A stretch of 64,000 bases of DNA. It comes from Marinilabiliaceae bacterium (GTDB lineage: Bacteria; Bacteroidota; Bacteroidia; Bacteroidales; Marinilabiliaceae). The translations under genes and the position numbers were made by a program. The notes beneath the pieces are model-generated. The model worked only from the letters and a program-made list of their open reading frames with translations, searched no databases and was not told where the DNA came from. Location of the stretch: contig WRMI01000003.1 of the NCBI GenBank assembly GCA_009777175.1, forward strand, positions 242 through 64,241, read 5' to 3'. Shown here piece after piece: positions 32,265-46,734 of this stretch (its first letter is position 1; every line of letters starts with the position of its first letter).

Positions 32265-32327
32265 AATAAATAAGATATGTTATTAATAAAATCATTCAAA
32301 GGAACCTGTTTCCTTTATAAAAAAATG

Positions 32328-32335
32328 CAAAAGTA
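32328..32335 (-). promoter_or_regulatory. -7 box TACTTTTG for the PAS/kinase pair
   Basis: The plus strand reads CAAAAGTA, 64 nt upstream of the start at 32264. Confidence 0.4.
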
Positions 32336-32456
32336 ATTAAAATTTTTGAAAACAAAGGAAAAAAAATTTTTTGATAAAAAAATTTTCCTTATTAATTGTT
32401 CATAAATATTTACATCCTCCTCTGATATCCATTGTAATCTTGCGGCTACTCTAATT

Positions 32457-33956
32457 TTATGGATAGATGGATTTGACGTATTGGAAGATTTTTCGCGGCG
32501 AGTTAAACTTTTTGATTTTTTCTTGAATTTTTTGGAAGAAAATGGTATATGCTTCGGCGTTCAAAAGAGTTGAGTCGGTGGTTGCTTTATATGTCAAAAA
32601 AATTCCAATTGGTAACAAAATAGCGGATGAAAGCCACATACCCTGATAAACAATCCATACTCCTTCTTTTGCAAATTTCACTCCTGTGGTGTCAACGATA
32701 TAATATATTACGAAAAAAAGTACTGAAATTACGGTTGGCAGCCCAAGTCCGCCTTTTCTAATTATTGCACCGAGTGGTGCGCCGATGAAAAAAAATATCA
32801 AACAGGCAAATGATAGCGTAAATTTACGATGAATTTCCATTTCGTGTCGCCGCATTTTTGATTCTTCACGACCAATGTAACGTATCTGATCCTCAATAGT
32901 TGCCTTATTATCGCGGGCTTGACGTAATGAATACTCAAGTACCGTTTTCTTTTGAAGTGTTGATAATGAATGATATAAGGAATCGCTATTTATACTTTTA
33001 GCACTATCAATAATTTCATAATTATCTCTTTCGTCAAATCTAATTTTCGAAAAAACAAAAGATGATGCGCGCAATTCTAATCCTTCAACTTGCGTGTCTC
33101 GTTCTGTTTTTAAAGAGTCCAAATCGTGAATGAGTTGGTTTAAATTTTTCATGCGGTCTCCGCTACGGAACATACTTTCGTCCGTTTTTGAAAAATCATA
33201 TCCTTGCAATTGCACAATTGCAGTCTGTTCTTTAAAGAAGTCAGTGTGAAATGTTTGTGGGTCTTTTTTATTTTGTTTATTCACATTTCCGAGGTCTAAT
33301 TTTTCATCATACCTAATACCGTCATAAAGCTTAATAATAAGGTACTGCTTGTCGTACGACATTTGAAATTTTCCTGAATCAGCCACCGTAACATTACTAT
33401 TTCGTGCTTGTCGGTCACGATGGTCGTATATCATAACGTCATATAAAAATCCTGTTTCTCTATCTTTTTGCTCAACTTTTACAGTAAAGTCGTCAATTCC
33501 ATCATAAAAAACTTTCTCTTTGATGTCTAATTCCAATCTCGTTTCTCTTATTCCGTGTAAAATGGAAACTAATTTTAAATTTGCCACGGGTAAAATATTG
33601 TTAGAGAACTGATAAGCAAAGCCCGAAATTACTATTGTTAAAATTATTAGCGGCATCATAATTCTTGGTAGCGAAATACCTGCAGATTTTAATGCTGTTA
33701 GTTCGTAATTTTCGCCGAGACTACCGAATGTCATTAGTGATGCCAAAAGTATCGCCAAAGGCATTGCCATCGGAACAACCTGAAGTGATGCATAAAACAA
33801 TAATTCAGCAAGAACAAGCCATTCTAAACCTTTCCCGACCATATCATCAACATATTTCCACAAAAATTGCATCACAAGAATGAACAATGCAATAAAAAAA
33901 GTCAGTATCAAAGGACCGAGATAACTTTTCAATATAAACAAATGTAATTTTTTCAT
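32457..33956 (-). CDS. LptF/LptG-family (YjgP/YjgQ) permease
   Basis: N-terminal ILKSYLGPLILTFFIALFILVMQFLW, a central periplasmic domain and three C-terminal TM helices. Confidence 0.8.
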   Translation of the reverse strand: MKKLHLFILKSYLGPLILTFFIALFILVMQFLWKYVDDMVGKGLEWLVLAELLFYASLQVVPMAMPLAILLASLMTFGSLGENYELTALKSAGISLPRIMMPLIILTIVISGFAYQFSNNILPVANLKLVSILHGIRETRLELDIKEKVFYDGIDDFTVKVEQKDRETGFLYDVMIYDHRDRQARNSNVTVADSGKFQMSYDKQYLIIKLYDGIRYDEKLDLGNVNKQNKKDPQTFHTDFFKEQTAIVQLQGYDFSKTDESMFRSGDRMKNLNQLIHDLDSLKTERDTQVEGLELRASSFVFSKIRFDERDNYEIIDSAKSINSDSLYHSLSTLQKKTVLEYSLRQARDNKATIEDQIRYIGREESKMRRHEMEIHRKFTLSFACLIFFFIGAPLGAIIRKGGLGLPTVISVLFFVIYYIVDTTGVKFAKEGVWIVYQGMWLSSAILLPIGIFLTYKATTDSTLLNAEAYTIFFQKIQEKIKKFNSPRKIFQYVKSIYP

Positions 33957-34342
33957 AGCGACCCAAGGCTACGTTTTAAAATTTCAATCTGCTTGTTCCA
34001 CTGCTCAATGGCATCAATTTCATCCTCAAAATCCACGTTATCAACAACAATTAATGACAAATCGCCCGTTATTTCGTCAATTTTGATTTGAAATTCGAAC
34101 CAACTATTGTCTTCGTAGTCGTCTAACCATTGAAAACGCACTAATTGGTCCTCATTACAAATTGTTTGCACTGCTTTTTGTTCACTTTTACTCCAAATAA
34201 AAGTATATTCGAAACCCTCCGCAGTAACGGAGTCGGCAAACCATTCAGCTAATCCTTTCGGAGTACTCAAACTATTGTACAAAACAGCCGGCGAAGTATT
34301 TATAAAATATTCTATTTCAATGGTTTTCTTTTGCTCTGACAT
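33953..34342 (-). CDS. START-like/SRPBCC-fold protein
   Basis: 129 aa; LYNSLSTPKGLAEWFAD resembles AHSA1/START-like proteins. 4-nt overlap with the permease gene. Confidence 0.5.
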   Translation of the reverse strand: MSEQKKTIEIEYFINTSPAVLYNSLSTPKGLAEWFADSVTAEGFEYTFIWSKSEQKAVQTICNEDQLVRFQWLDDYEDNSWFEFQIKIDEITGDLSLIVVDNVDFEDEIDAIEQWNKQIEILKRSLGSL

Positions 34343-34532
34343 ATCAATTAAGCTTGTTAACAGCCGACAAAAAAAATATTTTTATATTAATAAAAAAAAT
34401 TTTTTGTAAAAATATTTTTATTTTTTTTTGTATATTATTGAATATCAAAGAATAAAAATCACAAAAAATTTTAAAATTTATTTTTTATTAAAAAATTTTA
34501 CACAATTTTTTTGAAACAACAAAAAATCACAC

Positions 34533-34540
34533 TATCTTTG
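34533..34540 (+). promoter_or_regulatory. -7 box TATCTTTG for tRNA-Met
   Basis: TAnnTTTG match 15 nt before the tRNA 5' end. Confidence 0.5.
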
Positions 34541-34554
34541 CCGCGCAAAAAAAA

Positions 34555-34628
34555 GCCGAGGTAGCTCAGCCGGTTAGAGCGCATGATTCATAATCATGAG
34601 GTCGGGGGTTCAAGTCCCCCCCTCGGTA
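34555..34628 (+). tRNA. tRNA-Met (CAT), elongator-like; tRNA-Ile2 not excluded
   Basis: Acceptor GCCGAGG/CCTCGGT, anticodon arm CATGA-TTCATAA-TCATG, T-arm GGGGG-TTCAAGT-CCCCC. Confidence 0.85.
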
Positions 34629-34639
34629 CTTTGAAAATC

Positions 34640-34674
34640 AGAGGCTTACAAAATAATTGTGAGCCTCTTTTATT
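34640..34674 (+). terminator. Intrinsic terminator after tRNA-Met
   Basis: 11-bp stem AGAGGCTTACA/TGTGAGCCTCT with one G-U pair, followed by TTTTATTT. Confidence 0.65.
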
Positions 34675-35269
34675 TAATGCGCCCACAATTTGCCCGCCAG
34701 TCGGCAGATGTTCGTTTCAATTCAAAATTAATAACTCACTGACTTGGTAGTTATTATTTCCTGAAATTCAGAACTCTTGACTTGACGCAAAATCGATTGT
34801 CGAAAATTTGCGAAAAAAAATCTAATTTTTACCTAATTCACCAAACCAAATAACCTCAGTAGAGAATGAACCATTCGAGAGTAGCGATTTCAAACATAAT
34901 GCAGCAAATTGATACCAACGGACGTTTGTCGCTAAATTCCATTAGTTTTAAATTTTTTGAAACACAAGCAAAGGCTTTTGTCACTTTTATTCAAAACAAT
35001 TTGAAATAATTTGTTTCTGAATATCGATTATTCCGAAATTTTTTTCTAATTTTGTATTTGTGTTTTGACTCGTTGTTGGAACACATTTATTATTGTTGTT
35101 CAAGCGTTTGCTTTTGTTCTTGCGTATAGAAAATCTGCAATTTTTTAGCAAGATAGGACAAGATTGTTTAACGCTCACGTGCGTGCATGTGGGTATTTCT
35201 TGTTTGCTTGCTAAGGTATGCAGAGCCTCTATACGCTAATGAGAGCCCACGTTTTTTATAAAAAAAGTT

Positions 35270-35494
35270 ATGATGCACAAAGAGTTTCATATCGGAAAGA
35301 TGATACTTCAAAATCTGAACGAAAAAGAGCGAAATGTAGCCTGGCTTGCTCGAAAATTAAGTTGCAACGACGCAAATTTAGGTAGACAACTCGCAAATAG
35401 CAAGCATATTCATTGCGAATTGTTGCTACGAATTTCAAATGTTCTGAAAAAAGATTTTTTTGTACACTATTCTGAGATAGTTGATTTGCAATAA
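35270..35494 (+). CDS. Small HTH (XRE-like) DNA-binding protein
   Basis: 74 aa; ...RNVAWLARKLSCNDANLGRQLANSKHIHCELLLRISNVLKKDFF resembles short Bacteroidota HTH regulators. Confidence 0.45.
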   Translation: MMHKEFHIGKMILQNLNEKERNVAWLARKLSCNDANLGRQLANSKHIHCELLLRISNVLKKDFFVHYSEIVDLQ

Positions 35495-35520
35495 AAAATT
35501 GAGCCCACATCCCAAACGTG

Positions 35521-35618
35521 TTCTCTACCACAAAGTACACAAAGAAAGCACAAAGAGCACAAGGTTATATTTAGTGTTTTGTGTACTTTGCGTAATCGCG
35601 TTGTGACCCTTGTGGTAA
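35521..35618. repeat. Palindromic CACAAAG/CTTTGTG element (family R1)
   Basis: TTCTCTACCACAAAGTACACAAAGAAAGCACAAAGAGCACAAGG...GTGTTTTGTGTACTTTGCG...GTGACCCTTGTGG. Confidence 0.8.
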
Positions 35619-35683
35619 ATACAGAACTCCTGATTTGCTATTTGCTATTTCATTAAAACACAAAACATTTCGATAATGATCCC

Positions 35684-35844
35684 GCATTTTTGGGATATCC
35701 CCCGAATTGCGCTTATTGGGCGACCGCGAGGGTACGCCCCTACCGGGTTATCTACGTTGCACTCGTACCGAGTGCTGCAGGTTATCGAATGTGTTTCCGT
35801 TTCTTGGGGTGTCAATATCATTCGGGACATCCCCCCAAAAATGC
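35684..35844. mobile_element. MITE-like element (family R2) with roughly 24-nt imperfect terminal inverted repeats
   Basis: Left end GCATTTTTGGGATATCCCCCGAAT; right end ATTCGGGACATCCCCCCAAAAATGC. Internal conserved hairpin GCACTC-GTACC-GAGTGC. No coding capacity. Confidence 0.5.
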
Positions 35845-35877
35845 AACATATTTAGTTTATAGTTGCATTTTTGTAAT

Positions 35878-35976
35878 ATCCTGTAATTTAAGTTAATAGT
35901 AAATGCCAAGTCAAAAGTTCTCAATCTTGTAAAAATTACAAGAAAATCCTGTAAAAAAAGTCATAAAATCCTGTAA
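35878..35976 (+). promoter_or_regulatory. Four phased direct repeats ATC[CT]TGTAA upstream of the island operon
   Basis: Copies start at 35878, 35924, 35946 and 35968, giving spacings of 46, 22 and 22 nt. The copy at 35924 is part of the palindrome CTTGTAA-AAA-TTACAAG. Confidence 0.45.
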
Positions 35977-36018
35977 AAATAGCAGCGTAAATATATGGTT
36001 TACATCATATTAAAGATG

Positions 36019-36026
36019 TACTTTTG
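36019..36026 (+). promoter_or_regulatory. -7 box TACTTTTG for the island operon
   Basis: TAnnTTTG match 44 nt before the ATG at 36070. Confidence 0.5.
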
Positions 36027-36069
36027 TATTTTAATTTTTTTAAATTATTAATTTTTTATTTTCTTTACA

Positions 36070-37083
36070 ATGACAAAAAAAATAATTGTTTTTATCGCAA
36101 CACTCCTGTTTTGTGGAGTAGTTGCCGCACAAAATCAGAACGAACATGAGGAGTTTTTGAATGCTCAATTTCTGATTTTAGAGGAAGTTCAGCCGCTAAC
36201 GCAGGCAGAACGAGATCAAATGAAAAGCATTTTCTATGAGGAAATTGCTGAATCGGGTATTCAAGATTTTGCCTTTAATATGGCAATGAGTGCAACGCTC
36301 AAAGATATTGAATACTATAAACATTATTACAAGGATGCGATTGCAAAAAGAGCATGGGTTTTGTACCACGAAGATCTATTCTTTTATGAAGAAGAAATGG
36401 AACTTGCTGAGTCTACGCTCGAATCAGTTAAACCTGATTTAAAAGAGCTTAGCGAGCAATTAGCACTTGTTGAACTCTATTTTTTTGCCACACCGTTTGA
36501 TATCTATGATATTAAAGCGGATGTCAGGTTTAGGTACGAAAAAAACATTTCTGATATTTATATCAGAAGTGATTCCAAAGGAACGAGTTATAATCTTGGG
36601 TTGGTGTTGCAAAACAGAGAACAGCTAAATCTCAGTATGCAACAAATTGACGCTATTGTGGATGCTGCGCAGGAAATTAAAACACTTTCTGACGACGGCT
36701 CTATTGACGAACTAAGCAATAATTGCTGGCTCTTTGAACGTGAATTTATCATTGATGCCTTAAGCGAGGAGCAAGTTAGCGAATTTGTAATTATTCGTTA
36801 TTCAGATGATGCAGCAAAGTATGCTATTGAAACGTGGAAAGAAGGAAAAGCCTATCAAATTGAGTATGGAAATGATTCAATTGCGGTTTTAGATGATCTC
36901 TTTTATTATCAAATAAATAAGTTGATAATACAGTACATTTATTATGATGATAAAGAGAAAATGAAAGAGATGTTAGATTTTTGGTATAAAGAGGCTTACC
37001 CTCAATTTTTAAGGCAACTTGTTGCGGAACGCCGCAGACGAGAAGCAGAAGAGATTGACGAAAAAGATTATTTTAAATTTTAA
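36070..37083 (+). CDS. Secreted, predicted all-helical acidic protein, no recognisable family
   Basis: Signal peptide MTKKIIVFIATLLFCGVVAAQ. First gene of the operon. Confidence 0.6.
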   Translation: MTKKIIVFIATLLFCGVVAAQNQNEHEEFLNAQFLILEEVQPLTQAERDQMKSIFYEEIAESGIQDFAFNMAMSATLKDIEYYKHYYKDAIAKRAWVLYHEDLFFYEEEMELAESTLESVKPDLKELSEQLALVELYFFATPFDIYDIKADVRFRYEKNISDIYIRSDSKGTSYNLGLVLQNREQLNLSMQQIDAIVDAAQEIKTLSDDGSIDELSNNCWLFEREFIIDALSEEQVSEFVIIRYSDDAAKYAIETWKEGKAYQIEYGNDSIAVLDDLFYYQINKLIIQYIYYDDKEKMKEMLDFWYKEAYPQFLRQLVAERRRREAEEIDEKDYFKF

Positions 37084-37096
37084 AAATCAGTATGTT

Positions 37097-38521
37097 ATGA
37101 ATAAATTAAAAATAATTGTAACAATTTTGCTAATGCCGTACTCTATTTTCATTATAGCTCAAATACCCAATCCGCAAGATTCAGTTATAATGGAAAAATT
37201 ACAACTTGCCAATAGTCTTCTTTTGTCAAATGGACAAGAGAGGGCGTATCAACTATATTTTGAATGTGCTGAAGTTGGCAATGCTTACGCAATGAATGCT
37301 CTCGGTATTCTTAAACAGCGCGGGTGGGGTACTGAGCAAGACGAAACAGGCTCCATTGAATGGTTTCAAAATGCAGCTCAAGCAGGGTACGCAAAAGCCT
37401 ATTATAACCTTTTTCATGCTTATGCAAAAGCACTCGGAGTAGAGCAAAATTTTGAATATGTGGTTAATTATCTTGATACGCTACATAATACACAGCATCG
37501 TTCGGTTGCGCTTATGTATCTTGGTTATTATTACTACAAAGGTTTTGGAGTAGAACAAAATTATGAAACCGCCGTTGATTATTTCCTACAGTCTGCGGAA
37601 TTTGATAATGCTGATGCATTATATTTTCTCGGGTTGTGCTACCGAAACGGATACGGAGTTGTTCCAGACGAGGAGATAGCGATATTTTATCTAAATCGCG
37701 CTACTCAATTAGGTCATTATTACTCTTTTGAAGAATTAGAAGAGGAATCGCCGGAAATAATTATTGAACCAAAAAATATATCAATGACTGGCGAAAACGG
37801 TGAGAATGAAATATCTCGAATCCCCCAACAATATCGACAACTTGAACAGATAAATTTGAATAATGATATTGGTGGTGAATACGTAGGAACTATCGTAATG
37901 TACGATTATAGCGGAAAGAAAATTGTAAAAAAATCTAAATTAAAGATATCGTTTGATGATACAAGTGATGGCAAAATTTTTGGAAAGTGGATTGAAAATG
38001 ATACACTCTATACCGATTTTGAAGCAATTTTAACAGAAAATGCCTTGCAGTTTATTGACACAGAATATCACCGAACAGAGAGATATCATAAAAATTATGC
38101 AAGAAAATGGCAATTTAAAAACGCCATTTTAGAAAAGACCGAAACTGACAGTATTTCATATCTTGTGGGCAATATCAGACAATATGATATAAAACGTAAA
38201 GAACCGAGCAAGCCATTATACATTTCTTTGCAAAAGAGTAAAAGTGAGGAAACACAATTAGACACAGAAAAAGATTTTTTTATTGCGTATCCAAATCCAT
38301 TTGAAAACAATATAAATGTCATCTTTACGTTAGAGAAGGAAATAAATGTAATTATTTCGGTTTATGAAGCAACAGGTAAACTTTTTGATAGACAAAGCCT
38401 TGGCGTTTTGCAAACAGGGCAACATAATTATTTGCTTGCTCTTTCGGCACCCAAAGGGCAATATATGCTTGTGGTGCAAACAGGAGACAATAAAATATCT
38501 AGTTTAATCATCAAAAAATAA
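37097..38521 (+). CDS. Sel1-repeat protein with a T9SS C-terminal sorting domain
   Basis: Start at the ATG giving MNKLKIIVTILL... (signal peptide). Several Sel1 units (AYAMNALGILKQRGWGTEQDE..., ALMYLGYYYYKGFGVEQNYE..., ALYFLGLCYRNGYGVVPDEE...). C-terminal YPNPFENNINVIF...GQYMLVVQTGDNKISSLIIKK. Confidence 0.85.
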   Translation: MNKLKIIVTILLMPYSIFIIAQIPNPQDSVIMEKLQLANSLLLSNGQERAYQLYFECAEVGNAYAMNALGILKQRGWGTEQDETGSIEWFQNAAQAGYAKAYYNLFHAYAKALGVEQNFEYVVNYLDTLHNTQHRSVALMYLGYYYYKGFGVEQNYETAVDYFLQSAEFDNADALYFLGLCYRNGYGVVPDEEIAIFYLNRATQLGHYYSFEELEEESPEIIIEPKNISMTGENGENEISRIPQQYRQLEQINLNNDIGGEYVGTIVMYDYSGKKIVKKSKLKISFDDTSDGKIFGKWIENDTLYTDFEAILTENALQFIDTEYHRTERYHKNYARKWQFKNAILEKTETDSISYLVGNIRQYDIKRKEPSKPLYISLQKSKSEETQLDTEKDFFIAYPNPFENNINVIFTLEKEINVIISVYEATGKLFDRQSLGVLQTGQHNYLLALSAPKGQYMLVVQTGDNKISSLIIKK

Positions 38522-38527
38522 TACATT

Positions 38528-39580
38528 ATGAAAAAATATTTGAATTTTTTAGCAATTTTTGCGCTCTTAGTGAGCATTGTGAAAATTAATGGACAAGAAT
38601 GCTCAGGATATTGGGACGAGTGGGATCAAGTGGCAAGTGGAGAAGAAACACCAAGTTTTTTCCATCCAAATGTTATTATTAAGAGATTTAGGTGGGATCA
38701 ATGGGATGATGGTCATAATAATGGTAATCCTAACAATCCAGGATCACCTGGAAATCCTGGACAGGGAAATAATGGGTATAATGGATATTCAGTTGATTTA
38801 CACTTAATGACTTATAATCAATGGCGAGGAAGTGCACGTTATGGCAAACATAAAGATGTAATCAACGGTAGTGGTGCACGGGTAGTTGCATTACAGGAAC
38901 AGTTAGGATTGAAAAGGTTTAATCGGCTTAAGAAAAAAACTGGGAGAGAAGGCACTTTCTTGGTTACTGACAGTTGCGCAAACGGTCTTTGCCAATACTA
39001 TGGAATAGCAATGTTGTGGAAAAAAAGTGAAATAGGTATTTCTCCAACGATTTATCATAGAAGAGTTACACTCCCACAGCAAGATAATTATTCCAATAAA
39101 GCACCTTATATAATAGGTGAATTTTCATCTTATTGTGTTGTTTGTGTTCATTACCCTCTTGTTTCAGAAAACCAAGTCGCTATGTCAGACGCAATTTTAG
39201 CAGATCCAATTATTGCAAGTCGTATAGAAGATGAAAGACCGATATATATTGCTGGTGATTTTAATTGTGATTATGATAACGAGGCAGTAAAGAGATTTAC
39301 GAGAGATAATAATTTTTATGTTCTTAATGATAAAGAATTTAGTTATCAAAATGGTAAGAGGATTTTCGAACATGCTACTAAGAAAGATGGCTCTATGATT
39401 GACTTGATACTTGAGTATAATCCCAAATATAATAAAACAGTATCATGGCGTGGAATACCATCATCTTTTTCTCCTGGTTGGTTAGGTCCATGTGTATTGT
39501 GTAATAATTTAATATGTCCATTTCATGTGTCAGACCATTTTCCTTATTATGTTAAACTTTGGTTTCAATATGTTTATTAA
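38528..39580 (+). CDS. Secreted endonuclease/exonuclease/phosphatase (EEP, DNase I-fold) family protein, copy 1
   Basis: Signal peptide; G/N/P-rich linker; the ordered EEP catalytic motifs LMTYNQW, VVALQE, VVCVHYP, IAGDFN, SMIDLIL and VSDHFP. Confidence 0.8.
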   Translation: MKKYLNFLAIFALLVSIVKINGQECSGYWDEWDQVASGEETPSFFHPNVIIKRFRWDQWDDGHNNGNPNNPGSPGNPGQGNNGYNGYSVDLHLMTYNQWRGSARYGKHKDVINGSGARVVALQEQLGLKRFNRLKKKTGREGTFLVTDSCANGLCQYYGIAMLWKKSEIGISPTIYHRRVTLPQQDNYSNKAPYIIGEFSSYCVVCVHYPLVSENQVAMSDAILADPIIASRIEDERPIYIAGDFNCDYDNEAVKRFTRDNNFYVLNDKEFSYQNGKRIFEHATKKDGSMIDLILEYNPKYNKTVSWRGIPSSFSPGWLGPCVLCNNLICPFHVSDHFPYYVKLWFQYVY

Positions 39581-39593
39581 AATTAAATAAATT

Positions 39594-40181
39594 ATGAAGT
39601 CGAAAGTAGTAATAATATTGACATTGTTTATTGTTTTAGTATCTTCGTGCTTTAAAGAAGAAATTGTTTACTATGACATTGCTGAGTGGCAACATAAAAT
39701 GATACCATACCAATTAGGTCAAACTATCACGTTTATTGATACTTTGGGACGAAGTTCTGATGTACATGTAACTAATGATACAACAGCATATTATGATGTT
39801 TTACATATTACAACTCCCGCATATACACAATATACACAATATAGGGAAATAAGATTAATGTCTGACAAACAAGATATTAACATAACATTTGAAATTTTTG
39901 GCACGGGGAGAGATATAATTGTAACATTTTTTGATAATTGGCGGAGTACATTGAGTCATGATGAAGAAGGTAGGTTTATAACTTTCGAGAGTAATAATAG
40001 AAAACAATCTTTATTCGATTCCTTAGAAATAAACAACACAATCCTATACGATGTAGTTGAGCATAATTATTATCATTACTCGACAAAGAAACTTATGTTG
40101 CATCTTTTATACAACACAACTTACGGCATCCTTCATTTTGAATATGAAGAAAGAGTGGTTTATACGTTGGCAGATTTGTAA
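39594..40181 (+). CDS. Lipoprotein partner, copy 1 (no recognisable family)
   Basis: Lipobox LVSSC and a beta-rich sequence. Homologous to the ORF at 41820 (shared KM[IV]PY..GQ, DEEG[RK]FI, LFDS[LI]EINN, LLYNTTYG[IV]L). Confidence 0.65.
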   Translation: MKSKVVIILTLFIVLVSSCFKEEIVYYDIAEWQHKMIPYQLGQTITFIDTLGRSSDVHVTNDTTAYYDVLHITTPAYTQYTQYREIRLMSDKQDINITFEIFGTGRDIIVTFFDNWRSTLSHDEEGRFITFESNNRKQSLFDSLEINNTILYDVVEHNYYHYSTKKLMLHLLYNTTYGILHFEYEERVVYTLADL

Positions 40182-40224
40182 AATAATAAAGTCGAAAGTA
40201 GTAATATTTGCAATAGTTAGAAAC

Positions 40225-40776
40225 GGTAAAATTATCGGCAAATGGATTGAAAATGATACACTCTATACCGATTTTGAAGCAATTTTAACAGAAAATGCCT
40301 TGCAGTTTATTGACACAGAATATCACCGAACAGAGAGATATCATAAAAATTATGCAAAAAAATGGCAATTTAAAAATGCTATTTTAGAAAAGACCGAAAC
40401 TGACAGTATTTCATATCTTGTGGGTAATATAAGGCAATATGATATAAAACGTAAAGAGCCGAGCAAGCCATTATACATTTCTTTGCAAAAGAGTAAAAGT
40501 GCGGAAACACAGTTAGAGACCGAAAAAGATTTTTTTATTGCATATCCAAATCCATTTGAAAACAATATTAATATCATCTTTACGTTAGAGAAGGAAATGA
40601 ATGTAATTATTTCGGTTTATGAAGCAACAGGTAAACTTTTTGATAGACAAAGCATTGGCGTTTTGCAAACAGGGCAACATAACTATTTGCTTGCTCTTTC
40701 GGCACCAAAAGGGCAATATATGCTTGTGGTGCAAACAGGGGACAATAAAATATCTAGTTTAATCATCAAAAAATAA
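40225..40776 (+). pseudogene. 5'-truncated copy of the 3' third of the Sel1/T9SS-CTD gene (orphan CTD module)
   Basis: Aligns to 37970-38521 with about 19 mismatches by hand count. It has no start codon or signal peptide of its own. The ORF-track entry 40057..40776 only gains an N-terminus by reading out of frame through the preceding gene. Confidence 0.65.
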
Positions 40777-40782
40777 TACATT

Positions 40783-41808
40783 ATGAAAAAATATTTGAAA
40801 TTTTTAGCAATTTTTGCGCTCTTATTGAGCGTTTTGGAAATTAATGGACAAGAATGTGCAGGATATTGGGACGAGTGGGATCAAGTGGCAAGTGGAGAAG
40901 GAACACCAAGTTTTTTTCCACCCGGTTATAATCCTGTGAGGTTTTTAGGAGATTTATGGGATGATGGTCATAACGATCCTGGCAGCCCACATCATCCTGG
41001 GAACCAAGGCCCCACCACATATAGTTCCCTAGATTTAATGACTTATAATTTATATCGTAATAGTGCACGTTATGGAAAACACAAAGATGTTATTAACGGT
41101 AGCGGAGCAAATATAGTAGCATTGCAGGAAATGTTAGGTTCTAATAGATTTAACAGACTTAAGAAAAAAACAAGTATGAATGGAAATTTCTTGATTACTG
41201 ACAATTGTGCAAACTGGTTTTTTCAAAATTACGGTATAGCTCTATTATGGAAAAATTATCACTTACCAGACATAACTCAAAGAATAAATCCAAATCTTTC
41301 CCCTTATATAATAGGAGAATTTACAAGTTTTTGTGTTGTTTGTGTTCATTACCCTTTAAATAAAAATGATCAAACGTCTATGTCCAACACAATATTAGCC
41401 GACCCGGTGATTGTAGCTTGCCAAAACGCCGAAAAACCAATTTTTATTGCGGGCGATTTTAATCGAAGTCCTTGGGGTGATAATGAAAACTACCCTATTA
41501 AAGCATTTACAGACCAAGGTTATGAAGTGCTAAATTTTCTGGGCACATATGAAGACCCTCCGAATTCTGGTAACTATAAATGGGATCACGCAACAAAAAA
41601 GGATGGCTCTATGATAGATTTGATACTTGAGTATAGTACTAAATCAGATAAATCTACCGATTGGGGTTTCAGTGGCATTCCCTCTTCTTTTCCTTCTAGC
41701 TGGTTAGGAAAGTGTGATTGTTGTGAAAAGGGGTGGTGCCCCTGTCAACAACATGTTTCAGACCATTTTCCATACCTTGTAAAACGTCGGTGGAAGGCGT
41801 ATGACTAA
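40783..41808 (+). CDS. Secreted EEP (DNase I-fold) family protein, copy 2
   Basis: Same motif set (LMTYNLY, IVALQE, VVCVHYP, IAGDFNRSP, SMIDLIL, VSDHFP). The first ~45 codons are nearly identical to copy 1 and the rest has diverged. Confidence 0.8.
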   Translation: MKKYLKFLAIFALLLSVLEINGQECAGYWDEWDQVASGEGTPSFFPPGYNPVRFLGDLWDDGHNDPGSPHHPGNQGPTTYSSLDLMTYNLYRNSARYGKHKDVINGSGANIVALQEMLGSNRFNRLKKKTSMNGNFLITDNCANWFFQNYGIALLWKNYHLPDITQRINPNLSPYIIGEFTSFCVVCVHYPLNKNDQTSMSNTILADPVIVACQNAEKPIFIAGDFNRSPWGDNENYPIKAFTDQGYEVLNFLGTYEDPPNSGNYKWDHATKKDGSMIDLILEYSTKSDKSTDWGFSGIPSSFPSSWLGKCDCCEKGWCPCQQHVSDHFPYLVKRRWKAYD

Positions 41809-41819
41809 TAAGAAAAAAT

Positions 41820-42503
41820 ATGAAATCGAAAATATTAGTATTGTTATTTGCCTTGCCGGTTGTTTTTGTTTTATCTTGTGAGAAGGAACAAATCGATTAC
41901 TTTTACTTGACTGATACTCAAATTAAGATGGTACCATACACTTTCGGTCAGTCTGTTATGTGTCTTGATTTTTATGGAGATAGTTTTGAACTAATTGTAG
42001 TAGAAGATTACATGTTTTATTCGGAACTCAATTGGGATGCCCCCCGTTATACTAAACACATACAACATCGTGAAGTAAGATTGAATTCTAATAGAAAAAA
42101 TAAACAAAATTATGAAATATATATAGGTTATTCAGGGGAGGATAATTATATTGCGTTTCGAATCTTATATAATTTGTGGTATGGTTTACACCATGACGAT
42201 GAAGGAAAATTTATAATTTCAGAAAGTTATAATAGCAGACAATTCTTATTCGATTCCATAGAAATCAACAATAATATCTATTACGATGTTATTGAGAATA
42301 ATCATATTAACCCTGATAACAACAATGAAATAGTAGGTCGGCTATTATACAACACAACCTACGGTGTCCTTCTATTTGAACATAGGGATATAGAAGGTTT
42401 TGTTATAGATAATTTTTCAAACAACAATATAAATGAAAAAAGTAATTTTTGTTATTTCAATCCTGTTGATTTCACATATAGCGGTTTCTCAGATTATAAA
42501 TGA
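41820..42503 (+). CDS. Lipoprotein partner, copy 2
   Basis: Lipobox FVLSC. Homologous to 39594..40181. Its 3' end overlaps the next ORF by 71 nt. Confidence 0.6.
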   Translation: MKSKILVLLFALPVVFVLSCEKEQIDYFYLTDTQIKMVPYTFGQSVMCLDFYGDSFELIVVEDYMFYSELNWDAPRYTKHIQHREVRLNSNRKNKQNYEIYIGYSGEDNYIAFRILYNLWYGLHHDDEGKFIISESYNSRQFLFDSIEINNNIYYDVIENNHINPDNNNEIVGRLLYNTTYGVLLFEHRDIEGFVIDNFSNNNINEKSNFCYFNPVDFTYSGFSDYK

Positions 42504-42954
42504 TACGTTATATCAAGGAAAAATTGAATCAAAAAAGGTGCTATTGCCCAGAAATGAATTTGCTTTTTCGTTAGGTGGTGTTGTAGAGCAATTAAAACCA
42601 TTTTATGGTGTTGGTGCTTTCACATTCTCCTACCACAAACGTAATAAAATTAAAAATTGGTTTTGGTTTGGTTTTTGTTCAGCCGATATTCATGGGCAAA
42701 ACCGTTATGGTTATTATAGATATGTTTCAATTGCACCCTCAATACGTTTTTCGTTTCTAAATGAACCAAAAGTTACACTATATTCGGGTCTTTCACTAGG
42801 GATAGGAATAATGACTGGTGCTTTCGGAGGAATCTTTCCTTTTTACCAAATAACGCCAATCGGTTTTTCTTACGGCAAACGATTCTTTGTTGGTGGTGAG
42901 TATGGTTATGGTTTAAAAGGTTCTTTTTGTGGTAATGTAGGCTATAGGTGGTGA
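42433..42954 (+). CDS. Small outer-membrane beta-barrel-like protein
   Basis: Signal peptide, alternating Gly/aromatic strands, and a C-terminal ...GNVGYRW aromatic beta-signal. Confidence 0.5.
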   Translation: MKKVIFVISILLISHIAVSQIINDTLYQGKIESKKVLLPRNEFAFSLGGVVEQLKPFYGVGAFTFSYHKRNKIKNWFWFGFCSADIHGQNRYGYYRYVSIAPSIRFSFLNEPKVTLYSGLSLGIGIMTGAFGGIFPFYQITPIGFSYGKRFFVGGEYGYGLKGSFCGNVGYRW

Positions 42955-42988
42955 TTGAAACCATCCTGAACACCACAAGTATGTATTA

Positions 42989-43071
42989 CTCTTTCCGCAC
43001 CCCAAGGGCAATATATGCTTGTGGTACAATTAGAAAACAAAAAATTTACAAATTTAATTATAAAAAAATAG
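42989..43071 (+). pseudogene. Relic of a third T9SS-CTD 3' end
   Basis: CTCTTTCCGCACCCCAAGGGCAATATATGCTTGTGGTACAA... translates to LSAPQGQYMLVVQLENKKFTNLIIKK*. Compare LSAPKGQYMLVVQTGDNKISSLIIKK* in the two upstream copies. Confidence 0.6.
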
Positions 43072-43077
43072 ACAATC

Positions 43078-43176
43078 ATGAACAAATTATTGAAAAAAAT
43101 TATTACTTTTGCATTCATTTTCACAATTTTTGCCCAACTTGCCCAACTATTTCACACATTTCGTACCAAATATTAG
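43078..43176 (+). pseudogene. 32-codon signal-peptide relic following the third CTD relic
   Basis: The ATG lies 6 nt after the relic stop, the same spacing as CTD-to-EEP in copies 1 and 2. It encodes MNKLLKKIITFAFIFTIFAQ... and then stops. Confidence 0.35.
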
Positions 43177-43453
43177 AGTCGAAAGTTCAAATTTTTGTTA
43201 CTGACCCTTTTGTATGGATGAACTTGAAACGGGTTGAGGATTTACCGCAACCTGTTTCACGTTTCCATTGATATGCTAATAGAGTAATTCTTAACGACGT
43301 GAGGAAATCAGATGTCAATTGTAACCCAGCATAAATTTGACAAAGAATAAACAGCTCGCACCTTGATACTATATTCAAGATGTCAGAACAAATTCCGATT
43401 AATGAACTCGGAAATAAACCTACGCCCGAAGTCGTAGATTTTGTTAGAACTAT

Positions 43454-43923: not shown

Positions 43924-44001
43924 GGTGGTTGTAGCTCAGCTGGTTAGAGCGCCAGATTGTGGCTCTGGAGGTCGCCGGTTCGAATCCGGTCAGTCACCCC
44001 A
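43924..44001 (+). tRNA. tRNA-His (GTG) with G-1 and encoded CCA
   Basis: Extra 5' G, acceptor GTGGTTG/CAGTCAC, anticodon loop TTGTGGC, T-loop TTCGAAT, 3' CCCA. Confidence 0.9.
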
Positions 44002-46259: not shown

Positions 46260-46331
46260 GGTCCCTTCGTCTAGTGGTTAGGACGCAAGGTTTTCATCCT
46301 TGAAACAGGGGTTCGATTCCCCTAGGGACTA
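46260..46331 (+). tRNA. tRNA-Glu (TTC), copy 1
   Basis: Same layout as canonical tRNA-Glu: GGTCCCT-TC-GTCTAGTGGTTAGGAC..., anticodon loop TTTTCAT, T-arm AGGGG-TTCGATT-CCCCT. Confidence 0.9.
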
Positions 46332-46370
46332 CAAATATTGTAAGTAAATAACAGATAATTTTATAAAAAG

Positions 46371-46625
46371 ATGGTACATCATCAGTCTGCAAAAAAAAGA
46401 ATGAGGCAAAATGAAAAGAAAAGATTGCATAACAAATATTATGCAAAAACTACTCGTAACGCCGTCAAATTGTTACGAAACACAACAGAGAAAGAAACAG
46501 CAACCACAATGCTACCGCGAGTTTCATCTTTGTTAGACAAACTTGCCAAAAGAAACATCATTCATAAAAATAAGGCATCGAACCTAAAATCGAGCCTGAC
46601 AAAACATGTTAATAATTTAGCATAA
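46371..46625 (+). CDS. rpsT: 30S ribosomal protein S20
   Basis: MVHHQSAKKRMRQNEKKRLHNKYYAKTTRNAVK...; 84 aa, basic. Confidence 0.9.
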   Translation: MVHHQSAKKRMRQNEKKRLHNKYYAKTTRNAVKLLRNTTEKETATTMLPRVSSLLDKLAKRNIIHKNKASNLKSSLTKHVNNLA

Positions 46626-46631
46626 AAAAAA

Positions 46632-46703
46632 GGTCCCTTCGTCTAGTGGTTAGGACGCAAGGTTTTCATCCTTGAAACAGGGGTTCGATTCCCCTAGGGA
46701 CTA
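46632..46703 (+). tRNA. tRNA-Glu (TTC), copy 2, identical to copy 1
   Basis: Base-for-base identical to 46260-46331. Confidence 0.9.
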
Positions 46704-46734
46704 CTATATTTTATCAATTTAATATCATTATATT

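Follow-up and report, generated by a model that had tools for sequence, protein, structure and literature searches.

Among the described systems closest to the locus analysed here, Tle/Tli pairs comprise T6SS lipase or phospholipase effectors that act in the periplasm and an immunity (lipo)protein encoded directly downstream, often as several paralogues, while in CDT the partner of CdtB, CdtA, is a lipoprotein. AID proteins are cytoplasmic or periplasmic, belong to known Imm families and are often encoded on mobile elements with a recombinase. The AID or orphan immunity arrays of gut Bacteroidales consist of small, fast-diversifying protective genes that give protection from T6SS effectors (Ross et al., bioRxiv 10.1101/471110; PMC12247911), and CDI (cdiA-CT/cdiI) and Rhs loci carry tandem orphan toxin/immunity modules (Poole et al. 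2011, PMC3150448).

The window, a 64,000-nucleotide stretch of a termite-gut Bacteroidales genome, carries at 36019-43197, on one strand, p337, a Sel1/T9SS-CTD gene, a first EEP enzyme and lipoprotein, a 5'-truncated CTD copy, a second enzyme and lipoprotein, an OMP-like gene and two relics (Table 1). The original prediction of a same-strand run with the EEP-lipoprotein pair occurring twice is borne out by the ORFs, the lipoboxes and the matches to PF03372. Its spacing of 6-14 nt holds for spacers of 10, 6, 13, 6 and 11 nt but not for LIPO2 and the OMP-like gene, whose start lies within a 71-nt overlap. The promoter-like box, thought to be single, is not unique, as TAnnTTTG has 67 copies on the same strand of the window and three further copies inside the operon, which makes the motif by itself weak evidence; it does, however, coincide with the left end, at about 36019, of the homology to the paralogous locus L023.

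Table 1. Features of the cassette array, in window coordinates.
Feature	Position	Strand	Basis or remarks
Bacteroidota -7-like box TACTTTTG	36019..36026	+	44 nt 5' of first ATG; left edge of conserved operon
p337, secreted 337-aa protein, first gene of operon	36070..37083	+	ORF with N-terminal signal-like sequence
Sel1-repeat protein with middle domain and T9SS type A C-terminal sorting domain (5' module type A)	37094..38521	+	ATG at 37094; Pfam/NCBIfam profiles
Conserved homology block, copy 1	37970..38680	+	last 184 Sel1-CTD codons, 6 nt, first ~50 EEP1 codons
EEP1, Sec-exported EEP-fold enzyme	38528..39580	+	PF03372 29.9 bits (cut-off 24.5)
LIPO1, lipoprotein of large all-beta family	39594..40181	+	lipobox VSSC
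Lipoprotein gene-start relic, ATG -> ATA, ..KSKVVIFAIV	40181..40224	+	repeat family D7; fused to truncated CTD copy
5'-truncated Sel1-CTD copy (middle domain + CTD)	40225..40776	+	Por_Secre_tail 2.8e-8; without start codon or signal peptide
EEP2, second EEP enzyme	40783..41808	+	PF03372 31.3 bits (cut-off 24.5)
LIPO2, second lipoprotein	41820..42503	+	lipobox VLSC
OMP-like protein, barrel family A	42433..42954	+	173 aa, signal peptide, ~eight amphipathic strands, C-terminal ..GYRW
Type B CTD gene relic, last ~27 codons (..LSAPQGQYMLVVQLENKKFTNLIIKK*)	42986..43071	+	78% identity to window's CTD ends
Type B EEP leader relic, 32 codons (MNKLLKKIITFAF...)	43078..43176	+	intact versions: P0003, P0004, P0005
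Possible lipoprotein gene-start relic	43168..43197	+	repeat family D7, 80% over 30 nt; weak evidence

The leading gene, p337, is identical in contig L025 and split in L023 (84% nt identity), and its product has no match in Pfam, NCBIfam, PADLOC or PDB. The second gene does encode the expected Sel1 protein with a T9SS sorting domain, with above-cut-off matches to Pfam Sel1 (1.8e-22), Por_Secre_tail (5.8e-8, 33.4 bits; cut-off 27) and TIGR04183 (1e-10, 41.5 bits; cut-off 23). The coordinates agree with the claim that each EEP gene starts 6 nt after a T9SS-CTD stop, first of the intact and then of the truncated copy; across the window, L023, L006, L003, L036 and L039, this distance is 4-18 nt, and the upstream cargo varies between Sel1-CTD and tail-fibre-like Peptidase_S74-CTD. 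The proposed tie to a T9SS cargo gene thus recurs in other lineages with other cargo, but L004, L026 and L037 lack the Sel1-CTD link. No CTD or translocation domain is recognisable in the EEP sequences themselves; speculatively, the T9SS cargo protein from the upstream gene may give the CTD-less enzyme surface display or export.

EEP1 consists of a signal peptide, a low-complexity region of about 60 aa rich in W, D, G, P and N, the catalytic domain and a Cys-rich C-terminus. EEP2 aligns with it at 58-62% aa identity and with the allelic cassette P0003 of L022 at 82% nt identity. In the alignment of all six family members the catalytic N, E, H, D-x-N, D and S-D-H never vary, so that both copies do keep the full motif set attributed to them. 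The AF2 model of EEP1 (core pLDDT 80-90; mean pLDDT 63, moderate confidence overall) retrieves CNOT6L, nocturnin, TDP2 and Bacteroides EEP structures in Foldseek with E of 1e-9 to 1e-11, the structural comparison that had been called for, and the structures closest to it are nucleic-acid phosphodiesterases with no known toxic role. With Bacteroides EEPs (3g6s BVU_0621, 3mpr BT and those linked to a PUL in L016), the enzymes share fold, catalytic residues and phylum, and some of the Bacteroides proteins are T9SS cargo; however, identity is only 24-28%, and those proteins have neither LIPO/OMP neighbours nor cassette arrays.

LIPO1 is confidently modelled as all-beta (pLDDT 92.7) and yields no significant fold match in PDB or viral structures (best PDB TM-score <=0.35); its family comprises 1217 clusters at 50% identity and has no relative in Pfam or PDB. 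LIPO2, whose core stops at about 42404 (..VIDN) and whose 3' extension runs into the next gene, shares 41% aa identity with LIPO1 and 67-71% with lipo239 of L022. Mean aa identity (LIPO 0.37, EEP catalytic part 0.48, OMP 0.53) makes LIPO the fastest-evolving component, and dN/dS reaches 0.53-0.57 in LIPO vs 0.28-0.40 in EEP. The gene that follows belongs to barrel family A, in whose alignment SYHKR is invariant and whose members follow LIPO in L001/L022, L005, L006 and L023; because the family has no Pfam match, its OMP fold is deduced from the sequence pattern only. As a small OMP gene occupies third place in the window, L022, L005, L006, L032, L036 and L038, the variable module is not just the enzyme-lipoprotein pair first proposed, which does recur, but a three-gene unit of EEP, lipoprotein and small OMP in a tandem, strain-hypervariable array.

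As in Tle/Tli, an envelope (lipo)protein gene lies directly 3' of a hydrolytic enzyme gene; unlike there, the fold is EEP and not alpha/beta-hydrolase or PLD, and export uses Sec, possibly together with T9SS, instead of T6SS, the locus having no T6SS genes. As in CdtABC, an EEP-fold catalytic subunit exported by Sec shares its locus with exported partners, one of them a lipoprotein; in contrast to it, LIPO lacks a lectin-like fold, gene order and number differ, and an OMP and a cassette array, neither found in CDT, are present.

The cassette repeats with a period of 2255 nt. Between 37970-38680 and 40225-40935 identity is 95-100%, falling abruptly to 55-80% across the remainder of the unit; the CTD parts differ by 17 synonymous vs 7 non-synonymous changes, and the truncated copy, within the second block that reaches about 40935, retains 96% aa identity to the intact one at a dN/dS of 0.09. 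A block of about 0.7 kb, repeated ahead of each enzyme gene, that keeps 95-98% identity between cassettes with bodies at 55-80% points to gene conversion or unequal crossing-over, which homogenises the CTD 3' end and EEP leader within a genome and gives rise to duplicated and deleted units, shortened CTD copies and relics. The junction KVVIFAIVRNGKIIGKW of the lipoprotein-start relic with the truncated CTD recurs in contig L003, and a third repeat copy (42986-43094) retains 78% identity. Both the CTD relic and the signal-peptide relic of 32 codons read as originally described but do not stem from the window's own cassettes: they match genes of the sibling contigs L023 and L003 at 94-96% identity, where the type B CTD is intact or truncated, and represent cassette type B.

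Sibling haplotypes of the same species have flanks that are 99.9-100% identical and different cassettes. L025 matches window positions 31067-38082 at 99.93% and diverges beyond; with L022, identity is 100% from about 43074 onward (dS = 0 for DprA and DUF3276) but only 82% over EEP2 and LIPO2, and that contig holds other cassettes. All sequences are from metagenome contigs or MAGs, and single junctions such as that of L025 could be assembly chimeras. A survey with our own HMMs and gene tables places EEP before LIPO, 4-14 nt apart, in the window (twice), L022 (twice), L023/L005, L006, L004, L026-28, L029, L032, L036, L037 and L039; the co-occurrence that had been expected elsewhere is thus found, adjacent and in the same order, on many other contigs and MAGs of unrelated Bacteroidales, and the order is kept across genera. 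Decayed EEP fragments lie directly 5' of intact LIPO genes in L030, L035, L036 and L038 (twice), LIPO is fused to a C-terminal EEP half in L029/L030, one EEP precedes three LIPO paralogues in L039, and L025 and L033 hold LIPO arrays without EEP; at least five contigs beyond the window show either a decayed EEP before an intact LIPO or several LIPOs per EEP.

The cassette does duplicate, diversify and decay, as was proposed, and the suggested Rhs/CDI-like logic is matched by repeated 5' blocks, variable content in identical flanks and decayed enzymes beside intact genes. Like CDI and Rhs loci, the array has variable tandem modules, each behind a conserved upstream-coding fragment that is a potential recombination arm, strain-specific content between identical flanks, and decaying modules. 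In contrast to these loci, the variable enzyme has a gene and a Sec signal peptide of its own and is not the C-terminus of the large conserved protein, the conserved fragment is a T9SS cargo gene 3' end with the enzyme leader, and the putative protection gene encodes a lipoprotein and has a small OMP gene beside it. As with AID genes, protective-type genes persist without, or outlive, effector genes (LIPO arrays or EEP relics in L025, L033, L036, L038 and L039); unlike them, the proteins are lipid-anchored, belong to an uncharacterised family and come with an OMP and an EEP enzyme, and no recombinase was noticed beside the array in the window.

While this architecture is well supported, toxicity and immunity are roles that we purely infer, and the chances are about even that the locus is a polymorphic one of secreted effectors and protective lipoproteins. 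The first gene of the unit encodes a phosphodiesterase or nuclease-type enzyme of EEP fold, exported by Sec, which would then act as a secreted antagonistic effector; the cognate LIPO, probably in concert with the small OMP at the outer membrane, would shield the producer and its kin, and strains would therefore differ in their effector and protection sets. LIPO(-OMP) genes persist past enzyme decay, as expected of orphan protection genes. In favour of this reading are the conserved order of EEP, LIPO and OMP, which distant PUL-linked EEPs lack, the hypervariability within one species, the mosaic identity and concerted evolution of the 5' block, the decayed enzymes ahead of intact LIPO genes, the fast evolution and great diversity of LIPO, the retained catalytic residues and the T9SS-CTD gene that ends shortly before the EEP start. 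A T9SS CTD is carried by the LIPO relatives P0038 and P0046, and probably P0043, which implies a surface location, would suit a partner or receptor-binding function no less than immunity and fits a simple periplasmic immunity protein poorly. These CTDs, dN/dS values below 1 everywhere and one EEP without a downstream LIPO (P0004 in L003) speak against the effector reading, as do the moderate confidence of the EEP model and the non-toxic roles of its structural neighbours, the absence of a CTD or recognisable translocation domain from the EEP and the lack of any toxin, immunity or defence profile match.

A possible but distinctly less probable explanation is a non-antagonistic surface hydrolase, in which EEP would be a nuclease or phosphodiesterase outside the cell or in the periplasm that scavenges, for instance, eDNA, phosphoglycans or phospholipid head groups in the termite gut, LIPO its substrate-binding or anchoring partner and OMP the anchor of the complex, with strain variation arising from phage or protist pressure on exposed proteins or from substrate diversification. 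The nearest EEP relatives beyond the family indeed lie in Bacteroides PUL-like loci beside SusD-like genes, some with T9SS CTDs (these distant enzymes have no LIPO neighbour), L032 and L036 contain LTD-EEP architectures, which we take to resemble extracellular nucleases, and the exposure indicated by LIPO-CTD fusions and dN/dS below 1 would both suit such an enzyme; it leaves unexplained, however, the repeated enzyme decay beside intact LIPO(-OMP) genes, the three LIPO paralogues behind one EEP and the differing cassette sets in near-identical genomes. Improbable, in turn, is a CDT-like binary or ternary toxin acting on eukaryotic or bacterial cells, with EEP as A subunit and LIPO, perhaps with the T9SS fibre or Sel1 protein encoded upstream, as cell-binding B subunit: the co-encoded Sec-exported partners, the probably surface-exposed or secreted CTD-bearing LIPO relatives and the tail-fibre-like genes 5' of the cassette in L032, L036 and L039 are in line with it, but no known binding fold, ricin/lectin-like or other, is seen in the LIPO model, neither CdtB nor DNase I is among the 50 Foldseek matches listed for the EEP model, and B subunits orphaned from A would be useless. 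Neutral duplication and decay of ordinary paralogues, inflated by artefacts of assembly or binning (repeats collapsed or chimeric, strains mixed), is very improbable: the repeat length is troublesome for short-read assemblers, and the MAG bin of the window contig also contains a 30-kb contig sharing its right flank (FWH18_01155, FWH18_078xx) and therefore mixes haplotypes, but with differences at about 2-5% of sites the repeat copies of the window are resolvable, independent assemblies and samples show these junctions and cassette types again (ENA ERZ27257348, ERZ27257309, ERZ27257299, ERZ27257302; JGI 3300002469, Ga0209737; GTDB MAGs), gene order is conserved across genera, and truncated copies show a pattern of purifying selection and concerted evolution.

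None of the components matches toxin, immunity or defence profiles, and, in keeping with the original prediction, no account of a system with this architecture was found in the searchable literature. If the reading as secreted effectors with protective lipoproteins is true, the locus looks like an undescribed bacterial weapon-and-shield system.

Every open reading frame (ORF) of the original prediction is present in the array, which runs from p337, the first operon gene, through two pairs of EEP-fold enzyme and lipoprotein (EEP1/LIPO1 and EEP2/LIPO2) to a small OMP-like gene, with gaps of 6-13 nt between array genes. The array has a period of 2255 nt and a repeat structure far above chance: a homology block made of the 3' end of the T9SS cargo gene (CTD gene) and the EEP leader is 95-100% identical between 37970-38680 and 40225-40935, while the remainder of the unit shares 55-80% identity. 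The short third copy that had been proposed can also be read in the sequence: it occupies 42986-43071, with a signal-peptide ORF of 32 codons behind it at 43078-43176. The truncated CTD copy was considered as a translated protein and rejected, as it has ATA in place of ATG, lacks a signal peptide and lies in a frame different from that of LIPO1. LIPO2 overlaps the start of the OMP-like gene by 71 nt (42433-42503) through a 3' extension of about 33 codons past the usual IDN end of the family, an extension also found in a 239-residue lipoprotein of the sibling contig L022; it could reflect the loss of an ancestral stop codon or a genuine overlap.

Features of the array and the basis on which each was assigned
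Feature	Coordinates	Strand	Basis
p337	36070-37083	+	ORF
Sel1-repeat protein with T9SS type A CTD	37094-38521	+	Pfam and NCBIfam thresholds passed
EEP1	38528-39580	+	above PF03372 threshold
LIPO1	39594-40181	+	lipobox
Lipoprotein-gene-start relic	40181-40224	+	short repeat
Truncated CTD copy	40225-40776	+	repeat of Sel1-CTD gene
EEP2	40783-41808	+	above PF03372 threshold
LIPO2	41820-42503	+	lipobox
OMP-like, 173 aa	42433-42954	+	signal peptide, alternating amphipathic strands, C-terminal GYRW
Lipoprotein-gene-start relic, less convincing	43168-43197	+	short repeat

EEP1 and EEP2 are bona fide members of the EEP superfamily, scoring 29.9 and 31.3 bits against PF03372 (cut-off 24.5). As predicted, the catalytic motif set is kept, N97, E124, H208, D244/N246, D292 and D336/H337 being invariant in 6/6 sequences (EEP1, EEP2 and four relatives). 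An AF2 model of EEP1 built from six sequences has a core pLDDT of 80-90 and a disordered N-terminal stretch (residues 14-87), and its Foldseek comparison with the PDB returned 210 matches at E<=1e-3, led by CNOT6L, nocturnin and TDP2 along with two EEP proteins from Bacteroides structural genomics, with neutral sphingomyelinase at rank 17. Since the core is confidently modelled and the matches listed are all EEP-fold proteins, the four-layer alpha/beta sandwich can be taken as established for EEP1, a statement on fold that does not extend to substrate. Sequence searches of the PDB with EEP1 and with the EEP profile gave nothing significant, nor did a GTDB scan with the EEP alignment return any locus. 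A single-sequence homologue search with EEP1 found 6 proteins only, suggesting a tiny family; this reading was rejected, as our own HMMs on the fetched loci and the lipoprotein profile search revealed a far wider distribution. A T9SS CTD was sought on EEP1, EEP2, both lipoproteins and the OMP-like protein and found on none, and the enzymes are also without a recognisable translocation domain. The EEP leader is rich in W/D/G/P/N and disordered, a composition reminiscent of nuclease colicins, whose translocation domains are disordered, and its type co-varies with that of the CTD gene.

The lipoproteins carry the lipoboxes LVSSC (LIPO1) and FVLSC (LIPO2), with a cysteine nearly invariant across 42 family members, and are thus bona fide predicted lipoproteins. 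A single-sequence search retrieved two proteins, the query and one relative; a profile from six locus-derived members gave 40 matches, a GTDB scan with the alignment 5 MAG loci, and an HMM run exhaustively against 1.84 billion cluster representatives 1217 at E<=1e-3 (126 at E<=1e-30), so that, at 50% identity, the family comprises 1217 clusters or more. Apart from an occasional T9SS CTD, the members scanned are without a Pfam domain; the relatives that bear this CTD probably act at the cell surface. The AlphaFold model (42 sequences) is all-beta with a pLDDT of 92.7, and Foldseek found no significant match for it in the PDB (best E 2.6e-3, TM <=0.35, none lectin-like) and nothing among viral predicted structures; the lipoprotein profile likewise had no significant match among PDB sequences. 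In terms of divergence, the lipoproteins have a mean identity of 0.37 versus 0.48 for the EEP catalytic part and 0.53 for the OMP, and a dN/dS of 0.53-0.57 versus 0.28-0.40 for the EEPs, the ratio being everywhere below 1.

The Sel1-CTD gene is a bona fide T9SS cargo gene whose product passes both CTD models (PF18962, 33.4 bits against a threshold of 27; TIGR04183, 41.5 against 23), and the truncated copy also passes the T9SS CTD test. Profile searches with p337 (Pfam, NCBIfam) and with the OMP-like protein (Pfam), as well as PDB searches with both, gave no significant match; a weak and non-significant match of p337 to 6vj2 (‘Foldase’, E 0.084) is at most a hint that it might be a periplasmic chaperone for the enzymes. 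The features of the OMP-like protein (signal peptide, amphipathic strands, C-terminal aromatic residue) are read from the sequence, and neither it nor its family, barrel A, matches Pfam, while OMPs at the equivalent position match PF13505 in L038 (3.1e-11) and L032 (0.0096). The small-OMP slot is in fact filled by three unrelated families: barrel A in the window, L022, L005 and L006, barrel B in L025, L033 and L038, and the PF13505 type in L032 and L038; profile-profile comparison of barrel A with the L025 barrel B found no relationship. Compared with L022 3320-3470, the window protein lacks, at about 42492, an N-terminal domain of about 50-60 aa (DIIVTTNQDTIFCKILMVSSKYIRFQEK...) that is present in both L022 barrel-A proteins. 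In the small OMP, the SYHKR motif is invariant and might be catalytic, as in PagL. PADLOC and NCBIfam yielded no informative matches, the one PADLOC hit (E=0.053) being noise.

The alignments of EEPs, lipoproteins and OMPs were turned into HMMs, which were run over every fetched locus. An EEP gene followed a few nucleotides later by a lipoprotein gene occurs twice in the window, twice in L022, and in L023/L005, L006, L004, L026-L028 (two MAG assemblies and a termite-gut metagenome contig), L029, L032, L036 (a Bacteroidales MAG), L037 (a Bacteroides sp. MAG) and L039; in many of these loci the small OMP comes next. The expected co-occurrence of the two families is thus seen, in the same order, across loci, and because this order recurs, the possibility that EEP and lipoprotein genes do not travel together elsewhere falls away. 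The proposed tie to a T9SS cargo gene stands in part. A gene with a T9SS type A CTD stops 4-18 nt before the EEP in six loci: the cargo is of the Sel1 type in the window, L023, L006 and L003, while in L036 and L039 it is tail-fibre-like and combines a Peptidase_S74 chaperone domain with the CTD. In L032 an S74 protein without CTD is found, and L004, L026 and L037 have neither a CTD gene nor an S74 gene, so that the CTD gene is frequent and not obligatory. In L003, a 295-aa gene (1661-2548) whose weak match is NodZ-like (fucosyltransferase) lies within an array between the EEP P0004 and the next CTD relic, where lipoprotein and OMP would be. PUL-associated EEPs on human-gut contigs (24-28% identity) have no lipoprotein or OMP neighbours. 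On one such Bacteroidales contig (L016 8288-10969), three tandem EEP paralogues directly follow a SusD-like gene, the third with a CTD-like C-terminal end as judged by eye from the sequence; these EEPs are a different, PUL-linked use of the fold.

Going by the source names in the records, the window belongs to a Marinilabiliaceae MAG. The contigs related to the window come from termite-gut metagenomes, and three haplotypes of one species could be compared: the window, L025, and L022 together with L023, which is the head of the L022 array. L025 shares 99.93% identity with window 31067-38082 and departs from it within the Sel1 gene; a lipoprotein fragment, two lipoprotein/barrel-B units and a barrel-A gene follow, and no EEP occurs before the contig ends. 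From about 43074 on, L022 matches the window at 100% (dS = 0 for DprA and DUF3276); upstream, identity is 88-92% in the OMP gene and 82% over EEP2 and LIPO2, with extra cassettes further upstream. L023 carries a split p337, Sel1-CTD, an EEP, a lipoprotein and an OMP of 325, 196 and 170 aa, and a different left flank. The L025 and L022 breakpoints therefore bound a hypervariable segment from about 38082 to about 43074, the window's terminal relics falling in the invariant flank. In the NCBI records, FWH18_01155 (window contig) and FWH18_07860/07875/07890 (a 30,452-nt contig) belong to one MAG bin, and the related proteins P0003, P0005 and P0008-P0010, recorded on the 30,452-nt contig, are found on L023 and L022 in the ENA assembly. 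As the L022 right flank is identical to that of the window, the bin is probably a mix of at least two haplotypes of one species.

Two types of 5' module can be told apart. Type A (ending in TGDNKISSLIIKK at the stop codon, then MKKYL) precedes both window cassettes; type B (QLENKKFTNLIIKK at the stop, then MNKLLKK) is the source of the window's terminal relics and is intact in L023, L022 and L003. The truncated CTD copies of the window and L003 have an identical junction with the lipoprotein-start relic (KVVIFAIVRNGKIIGKW), and the truncation therefore predates their divergence. At the amino acid level, the truncated and intact window copies are 96% identical and the truncated L003 copy is 92% identical to the intact L023 copy, while the two truncated copies share only 75%; CTD copy differences are 17 synonymous versus 7 non-synonymous (dN/dS 0.09-0.12). 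Such a pattern is the signature of concerted evolution, in which gene conversion copies the functional gene onto the truncated one. The homology block also spans the first ~50 EEP codons and can for this reason act as an arm in unequal crossing-over, by which cassettes would be duplicated or deleted.

Upstream of the operon, the promoter-like box expected at 36019 is present as TACTTTTG, in agreement with what we take to be the Bacteroidota -7 consensus, but it is not single: it occurs 67 times on the same strand of the window, with three more occurrences inside the operon. Its best support is that homology to L023, a paralogous copy of the whole operon, starts at about 36019. A sigma-70 promoter scan, a model ill-suited to Bacteroidota, stayed at chance level (51 found versus 44.8 expected). 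A G+C-rich stretch at 35660-35850 (+), within an otherwise ~33% GC intergenic region, folds at -64.3 kcal/mol (z = -2.9 versus shuffled controls, i.e., more stable) and is conserved in the near-identical contig L025 only; an Rfam search of the non-coding region including it found no family. Between tRNA-Met and the operon lies a 74-aa ORF (35270-35494, +) with a weak HigA-like/HTH match (TIGR02607, E 0.016), and the paralogous locus L023 is instead directly preceded, on the other strand, by a 130-aa HTH_3 gene; either could be a local regulator. The array is flanked by tRNA-Met(CAT) at 34555-34629 and tRNA-His(GTG) at 43925-44001, and tRNA-flanked positions are frequent sites of genomic islands. 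A mobile-element origin seems unlikely, no integrase-like ORF having been noticed among the ORFs of at least 50 aa at 33-46.5 kb, a list that was read and partly profile-scanned. Further downstream, the ribosomal protein S20 gene (46371-46625) lies between two tRNA-Glu(TTC) genes (46260-46332 and 46632-46704) of the same anticodon and Rfam score (65.6 bits each).

While the architecture and population dynamics of the locus are well supported, its function is a matter of interpretation, and we infer as the best-supported reading that the array is an effector plus protection system. The most telling point is the repeated, independent decay of the EEP with the downstream lipoprotein(-OMP) intact: C-terminal EEP relics stand directly before a lipoprotein gene in L030, L035, L036 and (twice) L038, a lipoprotein is fused to half an EEP in L029 and L030, three lipoproteins follow one EEP in L039, and the arrays of L025 and L033 have no EEP. 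Orphan immunity genes at CDI/Rhs loci (PMC3150448) and in Bacteroidales AID clusters (bioRxiv 10.1101/471110) are known for this pattern. The tight pairing of exported hydrolase and lipoprotein, the fastest divergence and family diversity of the latter, and cassette sets that vary between strains in otherwise identical genomes point the same way. For a downstream protein that would specifically neutralise its cognate enzyme, the linkage, the divergence and the retention beside decayed EEP genes are indirect evidence. Against an effector role count the lack of any match of array components to toxin, immunity or defence profiles, a dN/dS below 1, and enzymes devoid of CTD or translocation domain. 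The CTD-bearing lipoprotein relatives, moreover, are as compatible with binding partners as with surface immunity, and a nutritional surface-hydrolase complex is a rival explanation. A CDT-like binary toxin would also pair an EEP-fold enzyme with partner proteins; the CDT partners CdtA/CdtC, however, are ricin-like lectins, the lipoprotein model has no such fold, CdtB is not among the EEP Foldseek matches listed, and the window locus is not CDT. Neutral duplication plus assembly artefact is a third rival, weak in its artefact part since independent assemblies and samples show the same junctions.

The likeness to orphan CDI/Rhs arrays that had been drawn holds for the orphan modules preceded by upstream-gene fragments, here truncated CTD fragments, and for strain-specific content, with different cassettes between flanks that are 99.9-100% identical. 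It does not hold for the toxin, which in Rhs/CDI is the C-terminus of a conserved delivery protein, whereas the window EEPs have ORFs of their own, complete with start codon and signal peptide, beginning 6 nt past the CTD stop. By analogy, the locus would work like the orphan-module array of a polymorphic toxin locus while failing the defining Rhs/CDI feature. The effector reading can be extended to a joint one, which we consider unlikely as it stands: a formerly unrecognised, T9SS-linked polymorphic effector system of Bacteroidales, where a surface or secreted T9SS cargo (Sel1-CTD here, S74-CTD elsewhere) would dock the CTD-less EEP through its disordered W/D/G/P-rich N-terminal region and present or carry it outside, the new-fold lipoprotein and small OMP would form an outer-membrane immunity complex, and the CTD 3' end plus leader would be the arm for cassette swapping. 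The co-variation of EEP leader and CTD type might reflect such piggy-back docking, and physical linkage alone also explains it.

In keeping with the original claim of novelty, the literature searched, whose coverage is incomplete so that a prior description is possible, gave no account of the lipoprotein family or of any system joining EEP and lipoprotein, with or without OMP. Were the functional reading right, the locus would represent an effector/immunity family in Bacteroidales besides the known T6SS, BSAP and bacteroidetocin systems, and would connect T9SS cargo genes with polymorphic antagonism; a large orphan lipoprotein family that has neither a Pfam domain nor a solved homologue would then gain a function. 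As a natural case, the array shows cleanly how a conserved recombination block drives the turnover of cassettes in nearly identical genomes, so that strain-level incompatibility can be put to the test in termite-gut communities. Should the enzymes turn out to be nutritional, the conserved EEP-lipoprotein-OMP triad and the confidently predicted, matchless lipoprotein fold are still new objects that merit characterisation.
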